Origin: an uncultured Clostridium sp.
GTDB taxonomy: Bacteria > Bacillota > Clostridia > TANB77 > CAG-508
Reading direction: 5' to 3'
Length of the DNA stretch: 64,000 nt
Assembly (NCBI GenBank): GCA_947653235.1
Contig: CANTGH010000004.1
Coordinates: 2,453 to 66,452 of the forward strand
Shown here piece by piece: positions 11,654 through 15,381 of the stretch. Position 1 is the stretch's first letter. Each line of letters begins with the position of its first letter. The position numbers and the translations under genes are program-made. The notes beneath the pieces are model-generated. The model searched no databases. It saw only the letters and a list, made by a program, of their open reading frames with translations, and had not been told where the DNA came from.

Positions 11654-12796
11654 TTATTCTATTTTTATGTGACAACTCGTTTCATTTCCTGCAAAATCCG
11701 TTACTTTGATTTGATAATTTCCCGCTTCTATGATTTCATACAAATTTTCTTCTTTCTTTTCTTTTTTCTCGTAATTCGTAGCAAAATCAATTGAAAATTC
11801 TATAATATCCATTACTTCATTATTCGTATCATACAAGTAAGCATGAATGACATATGCAGGATACAAAGATACACAAAAAGGTGTAAAATCAATTTGTGCT
11901 TTTTGATTCACTATTTGTGCATTTTGCCAGATTGTATTTTTTTCATCATATATATTCCATACGGCATAACTGATTTTAGAGACTGAATCATCTATTTCAT
12001 TAATTTCAGCTTTCCAATCTTGTTTTGTTTTTGAGGAAATAATTGTATTATAATAACTGGTCTTCGCCACCATTTCTTTCTCATCTAGTACATTTCCTAA
12101 GGAATCGATAGCTTGTACTTTAACTTTGTAGACAGTCCCTTTATTTAATTTTGTAAAAATATACTGTTTTTCTGATGTAGTTGCATATAATTCGTCATTT
12201 ATATAATATTTATATCTTTTCGTTCCGAATGGATGTTCTTTTACTTTGATTTCTATTTGAGATTTCGTTCTTCCAATTCCATACAAATCTGCACAGTCAT
12301 AATATATATTTTGGTATTCTAATGTTAATTTATCTTGATATTTTTCTATTGATACATTTTTTATCTCTTGATTATCTTTATAATCTATCATAAGTGGTGC
12401 AAAATATGTTTTTCCATCTTCGCATCCTATTATTTCTGGTGCTTCTTTATCAATATTATTTACCTGATATTCTAATTGCGTACAATTTCCAGAGAAATCT
12501 CTTACTGTAATGTTTTTACTTTCATTTTCTATTACCTCTTTGGTTAATATTTTCTTGTCTTCTGATAATTCAAATCCACTTACTTGCTCAATTTCTTTAT
12601 TAGAAGTTATGGTAACAATTACATTTTGATTGGTTATCTCTTCTGTAGAATAAGAAATATTGCAAATTGGTGCATTGGCATTTCGCGTTAATTCAATAAT
12701 TGTTTCTTCAAAATAATATCTATATTTCGCATATGTCATATTGGTAAGCAAAATCAAATTAAGCAATATTATTATGGTAACTCTTCTTATTTTCAT
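11654..12796 (-). CDS. Secreted protein with a SipW-cognate-type signal peptide.
   Basis: GGAG RBS. N-terminus MKIRRVTIIILLNLILLTNMTYAKY shares the T[FY]AKY motif with the TasA-like protein upstream. Confidence 0.6.
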   Translation of the reverse strand: MKIRRVTIIILLNLILLTNMTYAKYRYYFEETIIELTRNANAPICNISYSTEEITNQNVIVTITSNKEIEQVSGFELSEDKKILTKEVIENESKNITVRDFSGNCTQLEYQVNNIDKEAPEIIGCEDGKTYFAPLMIDYKDNQEIKNVSIEKYQDKLTLEYQNIYYDCADLYGIGRTKSQIEIKVKEHPFGTKRYKYYINDELYATTSEKQYIFTKLNKGTVYKVKVQAIDSLGNVLDEKEMVAKTSYYNTIISSKTKQDWKAEINEIDDSVSKISYAVWNIYDEKNTIWQNAQIVNQKAQIDFTPFCVSLYPAYVIHAYLYDTNNEVMDIIEFSIDFATNYEKKEKKEENLYEIIEAGNYQIKVTDFAGNETSCHIKIE

Positions 12797-13286
12797 CAAT
12801 TTCTCCTTTCTGGTTTTGCACAACATCTACCCTTAGTTTGATTTGTAAATTATCTGCTAATACTCCTTCTCGTTCACACCATTTTAGAATTAGTTTAAAT
12901 TTTCTGCTTTCTTTTTGTCCCTTTTTGATAGTAATTGATTCACTTTTACCATCTATAAAGGAAATTTCTCTCTTCTGGTCGCAATCCCATAATTGATAAG
13001 AAATCGGAAAATCATTTGTGGAATTTTGAAGCTCTAAAATACAATCAAATTCTACTTCATTGATTTCATCATCTTGATAATTATTAAGGCAAAAATGATA
13101 TTCCATCGGAGTAGAATGTTCCTGAAATTCCGTTTTTAGTATCTCATCTTTTTCAAGAACAACAATTGCTTTGGCAATCTGCATTGTTGCTTCGCATTCT
13201 AAACCAGAAGTAAAATTAGAAAATAGCTCAATACCAATTATAAGCCAAGCTATTATAATAATAATTTTATCTTTTTTATTTTTCAT
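12759..13286 (-). CDS. Small secreted/membrane protein (175 aa), a possible accessory matrix component.
   Basis: N-terminal basic plus hydrophobic segment. Lies in the operon downstream of sipW. Confidence 0.45.
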   Translation of the reverse strand: MKNKKDKIIIIIAWLIIGIELFSNFTSGLECEATMQIAKAIVVLEKDEILKTEFQEHSTPMEYHFCLNNYQDDEINEVEFDCILELQNSTNDFPISYQLWDCDQKREISFIDGKSESITIKKGQKESRKFKLILKWCEREGVLADNLQIKLRVDVVQNQKGEIDENKKSYHNNIA

Positions 13287-13767
13287 GTTTTTTCTCCTTT
13301 TTCAACTTTTGTTTCACATAAAAAATAACCAAAACTGTACAATAGAATAAAATTACAAATTTAAAATAATGCTGAATAAAATGACCCCAAAATTGGGAAT
13401 GATAGATTACTTTTCCTTCTATCTTATTCATACTTGTATTTGGATCTACAATGACATTGTTATCTCCTTTTGCCAAAAAACTATATTCATCTATTTGATG
13501 AATTCTATGTGTAATTAACATATCATACGAATCCAAATATGTAACAATATCTCCTATTTCATATTGGCTATTTTCCTTAATCATAATTAGCTCACCTTCT
13601 TGTATTGTTGGTTCCATGCTATTACTAACAACAATTAAAATTCCATATTTTCCAAGTTTTACAACAGAGCTTTTTTGAATATATTTTGAGTAAATTATAG
13701 TTATTAAAATAATACTTAAGATAACTAAAGTTAATCGGTTTAATAAATTGATAGTTTTTGTTACCAT
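13276..13767 (-). CDS. sipW: Signal peptidase I, SipW type.
   Basis: SNSMEPT catalytic-Ser box and an ER/archaeal-type SPase I architecture. Adjacent to the TasA-like gene. Confidence 0.8.
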   Translation of the reverse strand: MVTKTINLLNRLTLVILSIILITIIYSKYIQKSSVVKLGKYGILIVVSNSMEPTIQEGELIMIKENSQYEIGDIVTYLDSYDMLITHRIHQIDEYSFLAKGDNNVIVDPNTSMNKIEGKVIYHSQFWGHFIQHYFKFVILFYCTVLVIFYVKQKLKKEKKHEK

Positions 13768-13885
13768 GTATCTCCTTTCTTAGCTTTCTGCTAAAAATAT
13801 CATTTGGTATATTCTTAGCAGAGAGCTAACTTTTCTCTCTGCTAGTTTCATATAAGGTTTTTAAATTGGATATAATTTTTTTATG

Positions 13886-14518
13886 TTATGTCGTTGCCTT
13901 GGCTTGTGTTCCGATTACTTTCAAAGAAAATGTATAGTCAAATACATCTTCTTGACCTTCGATAGTGCCTGTTCCAGCTTGCGTATCTTCTTCATCATTC
14001 ATTAATATTTCTGCTCTGTCTTCACCAGTCTCATATGGCCAATCCCAGACAATTTCTAAGTTGACAAGCTGATTTTCAGCTTCTTTGGTGATTGTACCAT
14101 TTAATTCTGTTTGTGCTAATTCTTGTAATGAAGCATACTGTCTATCTGTTGCAACACCATCTTTTTTTACGCTAAATAATAAATTAGCTGGTTTGTTCCC
14201 TGTTTCCGTTGCTTCAATTTTGTATTCCACATCTACCTCGGATCCTTTCGCATCTAATTCAATTTCAAATTTGCCACTAGCTCCTGGTGCAATTTTGCCA
14301 TCTTCTAGATTAACTCCATTGGCTGTATTGATTAAAGGAATTTGGTTAACTTCTTCTGAGCTCCAACCATTTACTTTAAAATTCCATTTTGCAATTTCAA
14401 ATCTTCCTTCTCCTTGATAACTAGAATAATACTTCGCAAACGTATAACCTATCAATAACATAATGGTTAATAATATAATTGATATAGAAACAAACCTAAT
14501 TTTTTGTTTTTTGTCCAT
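13886..14518 (-). CDS. TasA/camelysin-like matrix protein with a SipW-cognate signal peptide.
   Basis: N-terminus MDKKQKIRFVSISIILLTIMLLIGYTFAKYY. PG-S-GKF and LEIVWDWPYETG blocks resemble the TasA/CalY family. Confidence 0.75.
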   Translation of the reverse strand: MDKKQKIRFVSISIILLTIMLLIGYTFAKYYSSYQGEGRFEIAKWNFKVNGWSSEEVNQIPLINTANGVNLEDGKIAPGASGKFEIELDAKGSEVDVEYKIEATETGNKPANLLFSVKKDGVATDRQYASLQELAQTELNGTITKEAENQLVNLEIVWDWPYETGEDRAEILMNDEEDTQAGTGTIEGQEDVFDYTFSLKVIGTQAKATT

Positions 14519-14705
14519 AGCCTCCCTCCTTTCTTTATAAAAATAAAGTTAAATATTTTTAACGTATCTTGTTCTTTTTATAAATTGCTGGGGGCATTTT
14601 TTAAATGAACTATAGAAAATTAAAAATTTCAGTTTTTATACTATGTTTTATTTGGGGGATAAATAATATAAACTAACAAAATATTTTTTTACTCTTTTGG
14701 GGAAT

Positions 14706-14729
14706 CTAAATTTCAGAATTGAAATTTAG
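14706..14729. promoter_or_regulatory. Perfect 10-bp inverted repeat CTAAATTTCA-gaat-TGAAATTTAG in the tasA-like upstream region.
   Basis: Seen directly. Lies ~190 nt upstream of the tasA-like start and is a candidate operator. Confidence 0.35.
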
Positions 14730-14890
14730 CCTTAAGACAAAATATACGTTAAAAAACATTTAACTTGAACGCATTATAGCATCTTAAACTTCATTTGTAA
14801 AGTATTTTTTGAAAAAAAATTTATTTCTACTCGACATTTTTCTACAAGAAATGTCTGTAATCCTCTTTTTTACTACATTTGTAAATTAAA

Positions 14891-14920
14891 AACGATACTG
14901 AAAAATTTTTCCAGTATCGT
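14891..14920 (-). terminator. Terminator downstream of the sinR-like gene.
   Basis: Stem ACGATACTG/CAGTATCGT followed by a T-run on the minus strand. Confidence 0.55.
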
Positions 14921-14932
14921 AAATTTATATCT

Positions 14933-15256
14933 CTATTTTAAAGTATCTGCGATATTTTCACATAATTTGATATACAACTCTTTATTATCTTTTGATAATG
15001 TATCTAATATTTCTGAAAAAGCACTATCTGCATTTTCATCATTAATTCCTTTCACCAATGTATCTAAATTTAGCTCTAATACATTTGCAATATTAACCAA
15101 AACCGCCAAGCTGCAAATACTCGTTCCTCTTTCAATTTCACCTACATGAGATGGACTAATTTCTGTTTTCTCAGCAAGCACTTCTTGTGTCAAACCTAAT
15201 TCTTTTCTCCTTGCACGTATACGTTGTCCCATTGCTTTATAATCTATTTTATACAT
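14933..15256 (-). CDS. SinR-like XRE-family HTH regulator.
   Basis: MGQRIRARRKELGLTQEVLAEKTEISPSHVGEIERG is closely similar to B. subtilis SinR. AGGAGG RBS. Adjacent to the sipW/tasA-like operon, as in Bacillus. Confidence 0.8.
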   Translation of the reverse strand: MYKIDYKAMGQRIRARRKELGLTQEVLAEKTEISPSHVGEIERGTSICSLAVLVNIANVLELNLDTLVKGINDENADSAFSEILDTLSKDNKELYIKLCENIADTLK

Positions 15257-15381
15257 ATACAAGTCCTCCTTGTATAATATTGTATACTGATAAAAAATTT
15301 TTATTAAGAAGCTAAAACTGTTGAATATTGTCTGTAACTGTGATATGCTTCTTATAATTTATAATTGAAAGGAGGAACCAT

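Follow-up and report, generated by a model that had tools for sequence, protein, structure and literature searches.

A conserved SipW-type signal peptidase operon, probably encoding a surface fibre, in an uncultured Clostridium

A SipW operon, probably of the TasA/BsaA kind

The locus described here belongs to an uncultured Clostridium sp. and lies in a 64,000-nucleotide stretch of contig CANTGH010000004.1 (assembly GCA_947653235.1), referred to below as the window. It comprises the gene of a dedicated signal peptidase of the SipW type and the genes of three secreted proteins, P2, P4 and P5, and is probably, with chances somewhat better than even, a SipW-dependent surface-fibre operon (matrix or pilus-like) of the TasA/BsaA kind whose protein family is undescribed in databases. 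The kind of system is most likely already known, the new parts being the unannotated subunit family and a TapA-like partner made of Ig/FN3 domains. The genes, the T[FY]AKY signal motifs, the SNSMEPT box of the peptidase and the perfect 10-bp inverted repeat described in an earlier note on this DNA were all recovered at their positions, and its grouping of sipW with three secreted proteins that carry one common class of N-terminal signal holds as a conserved operon.

The features of the locus are collected in Table 1 and all belong to the minus strand, in the order XRE gene, terminator, promoter, leader of about 248 nt, P2, sipW, P4 and P5. P2 and sipW are separated by 118 nt. The spacer between the XRE gene and P2 is AT-rich and measures 414 bp; the earlier note had taken it for a 410-bp leader, and the spacer is real while its content is actually the terminator of the XRE gene, the promoter of the operon and a 5' untranslated region of about 248 nt. 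The terminator sets the XRE gene apart from the fibre operon as a transcription unit of its own. One strong and conserved sigma-70 promoter, read from the sequence, drives P2-sipW-P4-P5, and transcription would start near 14766. The promoter sequence TTTACAA-N-TGCTATAAT is kept in 15 leader-bearing genome loci and in several metagenome loci.

Species-representative genome loci were fetched around P2-like genes (L001-L080), the window copy being counted separately. The order P2-sipW-P4-P5 is kept in 14 of the 80 (L001-L006, L008-L012, L016, L023 and L031), and a fifteenth locus with this operon is L007, where the contig ends inside sipW. The usual position of the operon in the fetched loci is directly upstream of gap-pgk. 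The relatives come almost wholly from metagenome-assembled genomes (MAGs) of uncultured Clostridia. A contig identical to the present one exists in public gut-metagenome assemblies, where the proteins of the locus are nameless, and tblastn against plasmids gave no annotated homologue of the locus proteins.

Table 1. Coordinates of the features of the locus in the window (a slash marks the putative cleavage site)
Feature	Position	Strand	Description
P5, 380 aa	11654..12796	-	SipW-type signal MTYA/KY, four Ig/FN3/GBS-Bsp-like beta-sandwich domains (predicted)
P4, 175 aa	12759..13286	-	P2 paralogue, presumed minor subunit; degenerate signal motif LFSNF
sipW, 163 aa	13276..13767	-	Endoplasmic reticulum (ER)/archaeal-type signal peptidase I; N- and C-terminal membrane segments; SNSMEPT box
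Intercistronic RNA stem-loop, ~20 bp	13780..13829	-	Between P2 and sipW; conserved in 14/14 aligned loci
P2, 210 aa	13886..14518	-	Presumed major subunit; signal peptide ends G-Y-T-F-A/K-Y
Structured 5' leader RNA, ~248 nt	14519..14766	-	Conserved, covariance-supported; directly upstream of P2
Perfect 10-bp inverted repeat CTAAATTTCA/TGAAATTTAG	14706..14729	-	4-nt spacer; hairpin P2 of the leader, apical UUCAnUUCUGAA, then UCCCCAAAA
Sigma-70-type promoter	14773..14801	-	TTTACA-17-TATAAT, extended -10 TG (TG-n-TATAAT), 11/12 consensus positions, top site in region
Direct repeat TGTAGA-N4-TGTCGA	14831..14846	-	~35 nt upstream of -35; candidate protein-binding site
Intrinsic terminator of XRE gene	14892..14920	-	13-bp stem and T-run (terminator scan)
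XRE-family (Cro/C1 HTH_3) regulator, 107 aa	14933..15256	-	ATG at 15256; mechanical open reading frame from TTG 15262

The signal peptidase and the three secreted proteins

The peptidase encoded by sipW passes the cut-off of NCBIfam TIGR02228 (71.8 bits, cut-off 51.85) and reaches 29.4 bits against 23.3 for Pfam Peptidase_S24 (E 7e-7). It stays below the Bacillus SipW equivalog NF046067, for which only 51.7 bits were obtained and the cut-off is 190. By these scores it is the same type of enzyme as Bacillus SipW and not an orthologue-level match. In an alignment of 22 orthologues S50 is present in at least 90% of the sequences, and M51, P53, H87, K100, G101, D102, N104 and D108 are invariant. 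The motifs S-x-S-M-x-P, T-H-R and K-G-D-x-N are those of the Ser-His(-Asp) type and not of a Ser-Lys dyad; the assignment of these residues as catalytic follows what is established for the SipW of B. subtilis. A SipW homologue adjoins the P2-like gene in 47 of the 80 genome loci. The dedicated SipW-type peptidase proposed earlier is thus confirmed, with TIGR02228 above its cut-off and the catalytic motifs invariant or nearly so.

The core of the operon is P2, presumed to be the major subunit. Its N-terminal region reads ...LLIGYTFAKYY, and G24, T26, A28, K29 and Y30 (G24-x-T26-x-A28-K29-Y30) are invariant or nearly so in 32 P2 sequences. None of its 45 close homologues is named or carries a Pfam domain. 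A P2 profile run against 1.84 billion representatives retrieved 4,586 clusters at E<=1e-3 and 1,782 at E<=1e-10, the former number being a lower bound for a clustering at 50% identity. Many of the matches are proteins of 400-3,100 aa in which the P2 domain is N-terminal and followed by repeats of adhesin type (Flg_new, GLUG), an arrangement that fits a role of P2 in polymerisation or attachment. The AlphaFold2 (AF2) model of P2 consists of an 8-stranded beta-sandwich and 2 helices, with residues 29-41 disordered.

The P2-like domain, signal included, heads giant proteins with Flg_new, InlB B-repeat and GLUG repeats (among them P0214, 2,694 aa; P0221, 3,136 aa), which suggests a portable attachment or polymerisation module of giant adhesins. 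P2-like genes with the motif V-Y-A-K-Y form tandem pairs on long contigs of Saccharibacteria (Nanosyncoccaceae) MAGs (L077, 5875-7469; L078, 5989-7388), both without a SipW homologue within 6 kb of the pair, and P2-like genes with this motif are also present on a 2.1-kb contig assigned to Gastranaerophilales (L050).

The largest of the three secreted proteins is P5, 380 aa from a start with a good Shine-Dalgarno sequence (390 aa in the mechanical open reading frame). Its signal region reads ...LLTNMTYAKYRYY, with the motif NMTYAKYRYY, and residues A23, K24, Y25, Y27 and R38 are invariant or nearly so. The earlier note had presented it as a substrate without recognisable family, a view corrected by the AF2 model, by Foldseek and by the domains of its homologues, all of which indicate a four-domain array of Ig/FN3/GBS-Bsp-like type. 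The model has a predicted local distance difference test score (pLDDT) of 90.7, shows four beta-sandwich domains and falls below pLDDT 50 only at residues 19-36. Its Foldseek matches are tandem arrays of FN3/Ig domains, the BIg domains of SiiE and the Sap S-layer protein, with E down to 6e-10, and some P5 homologues carry PF00041 and the GBS Bsp-like repeat PF08481. P5 can be described with confidence, as a modelled structure, as a four-domain stalk of Ig/FN3 type. The disordered segment corresponds to the signal end and A-K-Y-x-Y-x-F-E-E-T-I-x-E-L-x-R, which are among the most conserved parts of the family. In the hhalign comparison with P2 only the N-terminal 136 residues of P5 are aligned, and the match is strongest at the signal and the AKY motif (E 8.6e-7).

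The third protein, P4, has no relative in the Pfam scan and none in the PDB profile search. Its family aligns with that of P2 over 170 columns (hhalign probability 97.6%, E 3.6e-12), and by this profile comparison P4 is a paralogue of P2. The landmarks common to both are the signal, an I-A-K-[WP] strand and a C-terminal [IV]-K-[IV]-x-x-x-Q strand. The T[FY]AKY motif had been assigned to two of the three substrates, which stands for P2 and P5; the P4 family is to be added in part, as most of its orthologues carry [SA]-K-Y at the signal end, followed by IAKPI, and the copy of the window is degenerate.

Assembly of the proposed fibre

The families of P2, P5 and P4 have in common a hydrophobic N-terminus that ends in [TS]-x-[AS]/K-Y and aligns with G-G-T-W-A/A-F of TasA. 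A scan of the five locus proteins against NCBIfam at E<=1 gave no signal-peptide family for P2, P4 or P5. In fibres of TasA each subunit inserts residues 28-38, the first 11 of its mature form, into the next one, and the N-terminus of TapA resembles the TasA donor strand and has been modelled as supplying the first one, so nucleating the fibre (PMC9674648). BsaA uses the same donor-strand mode with an intermolecular isopeptide lock in addition, and its operon also encodes a paralogue and a larger protein that is secreted (PMC7395162, PMC11580942). In the BsaA/TasA superfamily at large, paralogues share operons with FN3 proteins and signal peptidases (PMC11580942). The analogy drawn earlier with tapA-sipW-tasA and sipW-bsaABC is reasonable in this light (PMC9674648, PMC7395162, PMC11580942).

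By this analogy, SipW would cleave after A28 of P2 and after A23 of P5. The stretch that follows the cleavage site, KYYSSY... in P2 and KYRYYFEETIIEL... in P5, would be the donor strand that completes the beta-sandwich of a neighbouring P2, as in the fibres of TasA and BsaA. P2 would form the shaft, because it holds both a donor strand and an acceptor domain. P5 would sit at one end, because it has a donor strand and no P2-like acceptor domain; there it may prime assembly like TapA, as nucleator or tip, and display its adhesin-like domains. P4 would be a minor subunit acting as cap, adaptor or anchor. Polymerisation is the central claim of this proposal, and it is argued from the analogy with the known fibres.

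Several results weigh against the proposal, most of them on P2. The confidence of its model is only medium (pLDDT 71.8). P2 has no Pfam hit at E<=1 and no NCBIfam hit, PF12389 (Peptidase_M73) included, and in a scan of 58 diverse members of its family PF12389 is absent among the 25 families listed (of 41 hit at E<=0.1). PDB profile searches with P2 retrieve no chain, neither 5OF1 nor 8AUR. The hhalign comparison of two P2-family alignments (A1 and A2) with TasA, whose sequence was checked against PDB 8AUR, covers only 16-23 residues of the signal peptide (E 0.22 and 0.033), where GYTFAKY of P2 is placed on GGTWAAF of TasA. Foldseek of the P2 model against the PDB gives generic jelly-roll, carbohydrate-binding module (CBM) and CUB sandwiches with E>=1e-3 and a template modelling (TM) score of ~0.3, TasA being absent from the 50 hits shown. 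Between K29 and A43 the 32 P2 sequences have no conserved Asn or Asp, and a lock of the BsaA type (N-E-K isopeptide) is unlikely because the putative donor segment lacks a conserved Asn. The P4 copy of the window has no K-Y motif, and it and several close relatives read SNF, SQS or LQN; its maturation is uncertain here because the signal motif is lost. Finally, no LPXTG cell-wall anchor and no sortase were seen in the locus.

The description of P2 as TasA/camelysin-like, given in the earlier note, was therefore overstated. As a homologue by sequence P2 was rejected, since Pfam, NCBIfam (P2 and 58 relatives), PDB profiles and hhalign match nothing beyond the signal motif. The link of P2 to TasA is one of context, signal motif and a generic beta-sandwich model, not of detectable homology. 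The negative searches are nevertheless compatible with membership of the BsaA/TasA superfamily, because this superfamily is structurally conserved yet highly divergent in sequence, and the camelysin family takes in only 632 of its 2,172 members (PMC11580942).

The same genes could be explained if the role of SipW ended with the maturation of its secreted or surface-bound substrates and these did not polymerise. P2 and P4 would be monomeric beta-sandwiches of the wall or matrix, and P5 an Ig/FN3 adhesin acting by itself. The peptidase would then recognise the conserved K-Y segment as part of its substrate, and this segment would be no donor strand. This explanation draws on the facts that neither homology nor a fold match ties P2 to TasA, that the P2 sandwich is equally like carbohydrate-binding and CUB-type modules, that P5 resembles a conventional adhesin stalk, and that BsaB, the BsaA paralogue of C. 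perfringens, forms dimers only (PMC11580942). It accounts poorly for the segments after the cleavage site, which are highly conserved yet unstructured in the models of both P2 and P5, as is typical of a strand that folds on a partner. It also leaves aside that P5 copies the N-terminus of P2 without a P2-like body, as TapA does for TasA (PMC9674648), and that a very strong promoter and Shine-Dalgarno sequence and a stabilising hairpin after P2 fit a structural subunit made in bulk. We judge maturation without polymerisation to be improbable, at roughly one chance in five, and retain the fibre as the preferred reading.

The leader RNA and the intercistronic hairpin

The DNA from the promoter to P2 is strikingly conserved in loci whose P2 proteins are just 40-68% identical. 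A covariance model of the leader (R1), built from nine sequences, matches the window once and the genome loci L001-L080 14 times; metagenome loci add six weaker matches (E 0.02-0.34), and every one of these copies directly precedes a P2 homologue. Four further matches at E 4.7 are 38-nt fragments elsewhere. The scan of metagenomes made to enlarge the leader alignment gave, besides the six weak leader matches, only relatives at <=40% identity. Rfam 15 has no covariance model matching at E<=1 on either strand of positions 11000-16000, which cover both the leader and the intercistronic hairpin.

The leader folds into a junction of several helices that is closed by helix P1, a long-range helix of 22 bp that begins at the predicted 5' end and pairs 14766-14744 with 14567-14546, spanning ~180 nt. 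The leader contains three C-runs, at 14702-14699, 14658-14654 and 14594-14590, the latter two placed in hairpin loops; one loop carries AUCCCCC and another GCCCCCAG. An invariant box, UAUAGUUCAUUU, occupies 14614-14603, and the Shine-Dalgarno sequence of P2 is AAAGGAGGGAGG. The unpaired boxes are more strictly conserved than the helices. In the model-fitted alignment 96% of the cells are paired and 14 of 33 pairs change on both sides, values reached by none of 500 shuffles, and slid controls fall to 33-49% paired; as this alignment was fitted to the structure, the pairing figures are inflated. Independent evidence comes from a plain MAFFT alignment, on which RNAalifold again predicts P1, with A-U, G-U and G-C all occurring at one column, together with the hairpin of the inverted repeat and those with C-runs in their loops.

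The inverted repeat is hairpin P2 of this fold (a helix label, not the protein). About 0.04 perfect repeats of this kind are expected by chance in the 414-bp spacer, according to an estimate, and the repeat is conserved in relatives. Across loci 8 of 9 pairs change on both sides and 99.3% of the cells are paired; L023 and L031 keep the stem only by way of U-G and G-U pairs, as does L011 at one position. The repeat is an RNA hairpin and not an operator, because the U-G and G-U pairs would be mismatches in a DNA palindrome, because 8 of 9 pairs covary and because it is kept in loci without the XRE gene.

Several functions were considered for the leader and rejected. It matches no known riboswitch such as that for cyclic di-GMP, given the lack of an Rfam hit; P1 is no intrinsic terminator, being AT-rich and spanning ~180 nt, and the terminator scan gave none in the leader. 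Pairing of the C-runs with the Shine-Dalgarno sequence amounts to -7 to -16 kcal/mol, within ~1-2 standard deviations of composition-matched shuffles; an anti-Shine-Dalgarno element in cis was discarded on these duplex energies, no better than those of the shuffled controls, and the result also counts against the proposal as a whole. The favoured mode of action is stabilisation through the 5'-terminal helix, together with a binding site for some partner.

A leader that senses, either as a new riboswitch or by being bound by a protein or small RNA, is a possible but doubtful alternative. In such a leader, binding at UAUAGUUCAUUU, GCCCCCAGC and UCCCCAAAA would switch the translation of P2 or the decay of its mRNA. 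The 3' strand of P1 could also pair with UUUAAAUAUU, located upstream of the third C-run, in competition with the 5' strand. The strict conservation of the unpaired boxes relative to the helices, the multi-helix junction closed by P1, the exclusive presence of the element in this operon and the lack of an Rfam match all speak for a sensor. P1 is, with its 22 bp, very stable and unlike a typical switching helix, and there is no terminator, no clear anti-Shine-Dalgarno platform and no ligand or partner that can be named, for an element represented by just ~20 sequences of a single lineage.

In the intercistronic hairpin between P2 and sipW 98.9% of the cells are paired and 5 pairs change on both sides, and none of 500 shuffles reaches its paired fraction or its covariation score. 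A more weakly supported alternative hairpin at 13844-13816, in which the 5' arm of the main hairpin pairs with an upstream copy of its 3' arm, is 91% paired with one double change, and the two are possibly mutually exclusive. No T-run follows the main hairpin, and its reading as an intrinsic terminator was rejected. It would rather be a processing or 3'-stabilising element that uncouples an abundant P2 mRNA from the downstream genes, and in this way it may set the stoichiometry of the subunits. C. perfringens makes a short, abundant sipW-bsaA mRNA and a read-through transcript (PMC7395162), a pattern that fits a hairpin after P2. Together the RNA elements would stabilise the P2 message or gate its translation, setting a high ratio of P2 to the downstream products, and the control of expression of the operon appears to be mostly RNA-based.

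The XRE regulator and its candidate sites

The gene upstream of the operon encodes a helix-turn-helix (HTH) protein with a Pfam HTH_3 hit at 5.9e-14. The earlier note had seen in it a SinR-like repressor with strong similarity to the HTH of SinR; the identity is 33% over 79 aa (27 bits, BLASTP, SinR residues 2-76, SinR sequence verified against 1B0N), the alignment ending at query residue 87 and SinR residue 76. SinR is one among many equally weak PDB matches, C.AhdI, ClgR and the 434/P22 repressors being as good. The SinR/SinI C-terminal domain is not among the Pfam hits at E<=1, and the SlrR equivalog gives 21.9 bits for a cut-off of 250. Very well conserved orthologues are placed upstream of P2 only in L001, L002, L006, L009 and L010, so that the gene is present in 6 of the 16 loci that share the operon, window included. 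The protein is better described as a generic HTH_3 regulator.

A divergent gene adjoins the XRE gene in the window (15382-15576, plus strand). It encodes a 64-aa protein with two CxxC pairs (MKYCEKCKNY...CFPCYQKY) and no Pfam hit, and adjoins the XRE gene also in L002, L006, L009 and L010. L008 has lost the XRE gene and kept this Cys-rich neighbour. The 64-aa protein could be a partner or antagonist of the XRE regulator.

Repression of the operon by this regulator at an operator made of the inverted repeat (14706-14729) and a GTTCTTT element, as the earlier note had suggested, would make that operator a roadblock; this reading is very unlikely. In its favour, those 6 of 16 loci have the XRE gene immediately before the operon in the same orientation, the protein shares with SinR its approximate size and 33% of its HTH residues, and so perfect a palindrome is improbable by chance. 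The palindrome is nevertheless equally kept in L003-L005, L007, L008, L012, L016, L023 and L031, which have no XRE gene within the fetched flanks. It lies at about +37 to +60 of the transcript, its arms covary through G-U and in L023 and L031 pair only as U-G or G-U, and it forms one helix of a larger covarying RNA fold. The protein has no SinR/SinI oligomerisation domain. The GTTCTTT element is a chance match: GTTCTYT occurs 19 times in the window for 27 +/- 5 expected, which is below chance, and the orthologous leaders, when aligned, do not keep the one copy that the leader of the window contains. GTTCTYT was rejected as a SinR box.

A better operator candidate than the palindrome is the direct repeat upstream of the promoter (14831-14846), a lead whose function would still be regulatory only by conjecture. 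At the same position L001, L006 and L010 have TGnCGA-N4-TGTCGA and L002 has it with 11-nt spacing (by eye). No such repeat was seen in L003-L005, L007 and L008, all without an XRE gene, nor in L009, where that gene is present. The repeat thus co-occurs with the XRE gene in 5 of 6 loci, and TGTCGA has a frequency of 0.19 per kb in the fetched loci. Related GTCGA/GTCAA repeats were identified further upstream in L012, L016, L023 and L031, and near the promoter in L091. The XRE protein is likeliest an optional, lineage-specific regulator and, if it acts on the operon, its likeliest site is the TGnCGA-N4-TGTCGA repeat.

Two other sequences were examined in this region. The palindrome GACATTT-N9-AAATGTC (14855-14833, by eye) was rejected as an XRE operator, being unconserved in L001, L006, L009 and L010. 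The 9-mer TTACAGACA is found upstream of both the XRE and the P2 promoters (14852-14860 and 15329-15337); ~1.5 such repeats are expected by chance and relatives are only loosely similar, and it is kept as a candidate regulator site, as a lead only.

Comparison with known systems

A close likeness is with the tapA-sipW-tasA operon of B. subtilis (PDB 5OF1, 8AUR). Both have a dedicated SipW of the ER type encoded among its substrates; a major subunit of ~20 kDa when mature, whose signal ends in T-[WF]-A and is followed by an aromatic-rich N-terminal strand; an accessory protein, TapA there and P5 here, with an N-terminus that imitates the major subunit's donor strand (putative in P2); and, in some genomes, a small HTH repressor gene nearby. 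The differences are also several. In the present operon the major subunit comes first and sipW second, P2 shows no detectable sequence or profile similarity to TasA/Peptidase_M73 beyond the signal, and the motif is A/KY instead of the A/AF of TasA. The accessory protein is an Ig/FN3 array instead of TapA, there is an extra paralogue (P4), the regulator has no SinR tail and no SinI, and two RNA elements, a long structured leader and an intercistronic hairpin, come in addition.

The sipW-bsaABCRSD operon of C. perfringens, also clostridial, likewise combines sipW with genes for a major subunit of ~23 kDa, its minor paralogue (BsaB there, P4 here) and a larger accessory protein that is secreted. 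There sipW comes first, BsaC is a VWA protein whereas the accessory protein here is an Ig/FN3 stalk, and regulation is by the two-component system BsaRS. Unlike BsaA, which was compared by description only, P2 has a donor segment without conserved Asn and so no N-E-K lock. An analogy, and only that, can be drawn with the archaeal bundling pili of AbpA, the cannulae of CanA and AbpX, chaperone-free polymers of small beta-sandwich subunits with an N-terminal donor strand (PMC9245690; bioRxiv 10.1101/2024.12.30.630787). From the archaeal TasA-like fibres the present system differs in phylum and operon make-up, with no sequence similarity found against the PDB.

As in the SinR/SinI switch, an HTH_3 protein of ~110 aa adjoins a SipW fibre operon. 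Unlike in that switch, the 33% identity is confined to the HTH, the helical hook of SinR/SinI is missing, GTTCTYT is unenriched and the gene is dispensable in relatives.

Among Firmicutes, regulatory RNAs with C-rich loops (RoxS/RsaE type) and 5'-terminal stem-loops that stabilise a message (aprE leader) offer leads for the leader RNA. Like the former, it has C-runs in hairpin loops or single strands and, like the latter, a helix that starts at the very 5' end. Unlike RoxS and RsaE, it has no Rfam match to them, it is linked in cis to a single operon, and the pairing of its C-runs with the Shine-Dalgarno sequence is at the level of shuffles.

Reshuffled loci and neighbouring genes

The more distant loci (L013-L076) reshuffle the modules, for example as P2-sipW-P4-P2', as P2-P4-P2'-P5-like or as P2 fused to long C-terminal regions, which indicates a combinatorial operon family with several P2 paralogues.

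Two neighbouring regions of the window deserve mention. The first (15596-16123, minus strand) encodes a 175-aa protein with five DUF4116 repeats (2.7e-64) between adenylate kinase and the regulator module, and is kept in L001, L009 and L010. The second (16959-18883, minus strand) comprises two adjoining open reading frames of 348 aa and 293 aa downstream of a TelA-like gene, both without Pfam hit, the first of them with an N-terminal membrane segment. This pair appears unrelated to the fibre operon.

Biological meaning

A broader interpretation, held only tentatively and well below even chances, would make P2 and P4 members of a large unannotated superfamily of polymerising modules processed by SipW and distinct from TasA/Peptidase_M73. 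It would comprise at least 4,586 clusters, mostly of uncultured gut Clostridia and extending to giant adhesins and to Saccharibacteria MAGs. Assembly would be polar, with P5 as donor only, P2 as shaft and P4 ending the fibre. Two undescribed cis-regulatory RNAs would govern expression in this lineage, one a processing hairpin between P2 and sipW, the other a leader of ~250 nt that displays three C-runs and serves as sensor of a small RNA, protein or ligand.

Bacillus biofilms and C. perfringens pellicles have fibres of the SipW/TasA type as their main protein scaffold, and almost nothing is known of such structures in the uncultured low-GC Clostridia of the gut. Most deserving of further study are the RNA elements and the extent of the unannotated family. 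The leader and the intercistronic hairpin are candidate new cis-regulatory RNA motifs for a surface structure, and the case of the inverted repeat illustrates that operators proposed from a palindrome only can turn out to be RNA helices. If true, the trio of P5, P2 and P4 would offer a simple and testable model of how a polar fibre with a defined tip and end assembles without chaperones. Should P2 polymerise, a function would be gained for thousands of nameless proteins, including the N-terminal modules of giant adhesins.

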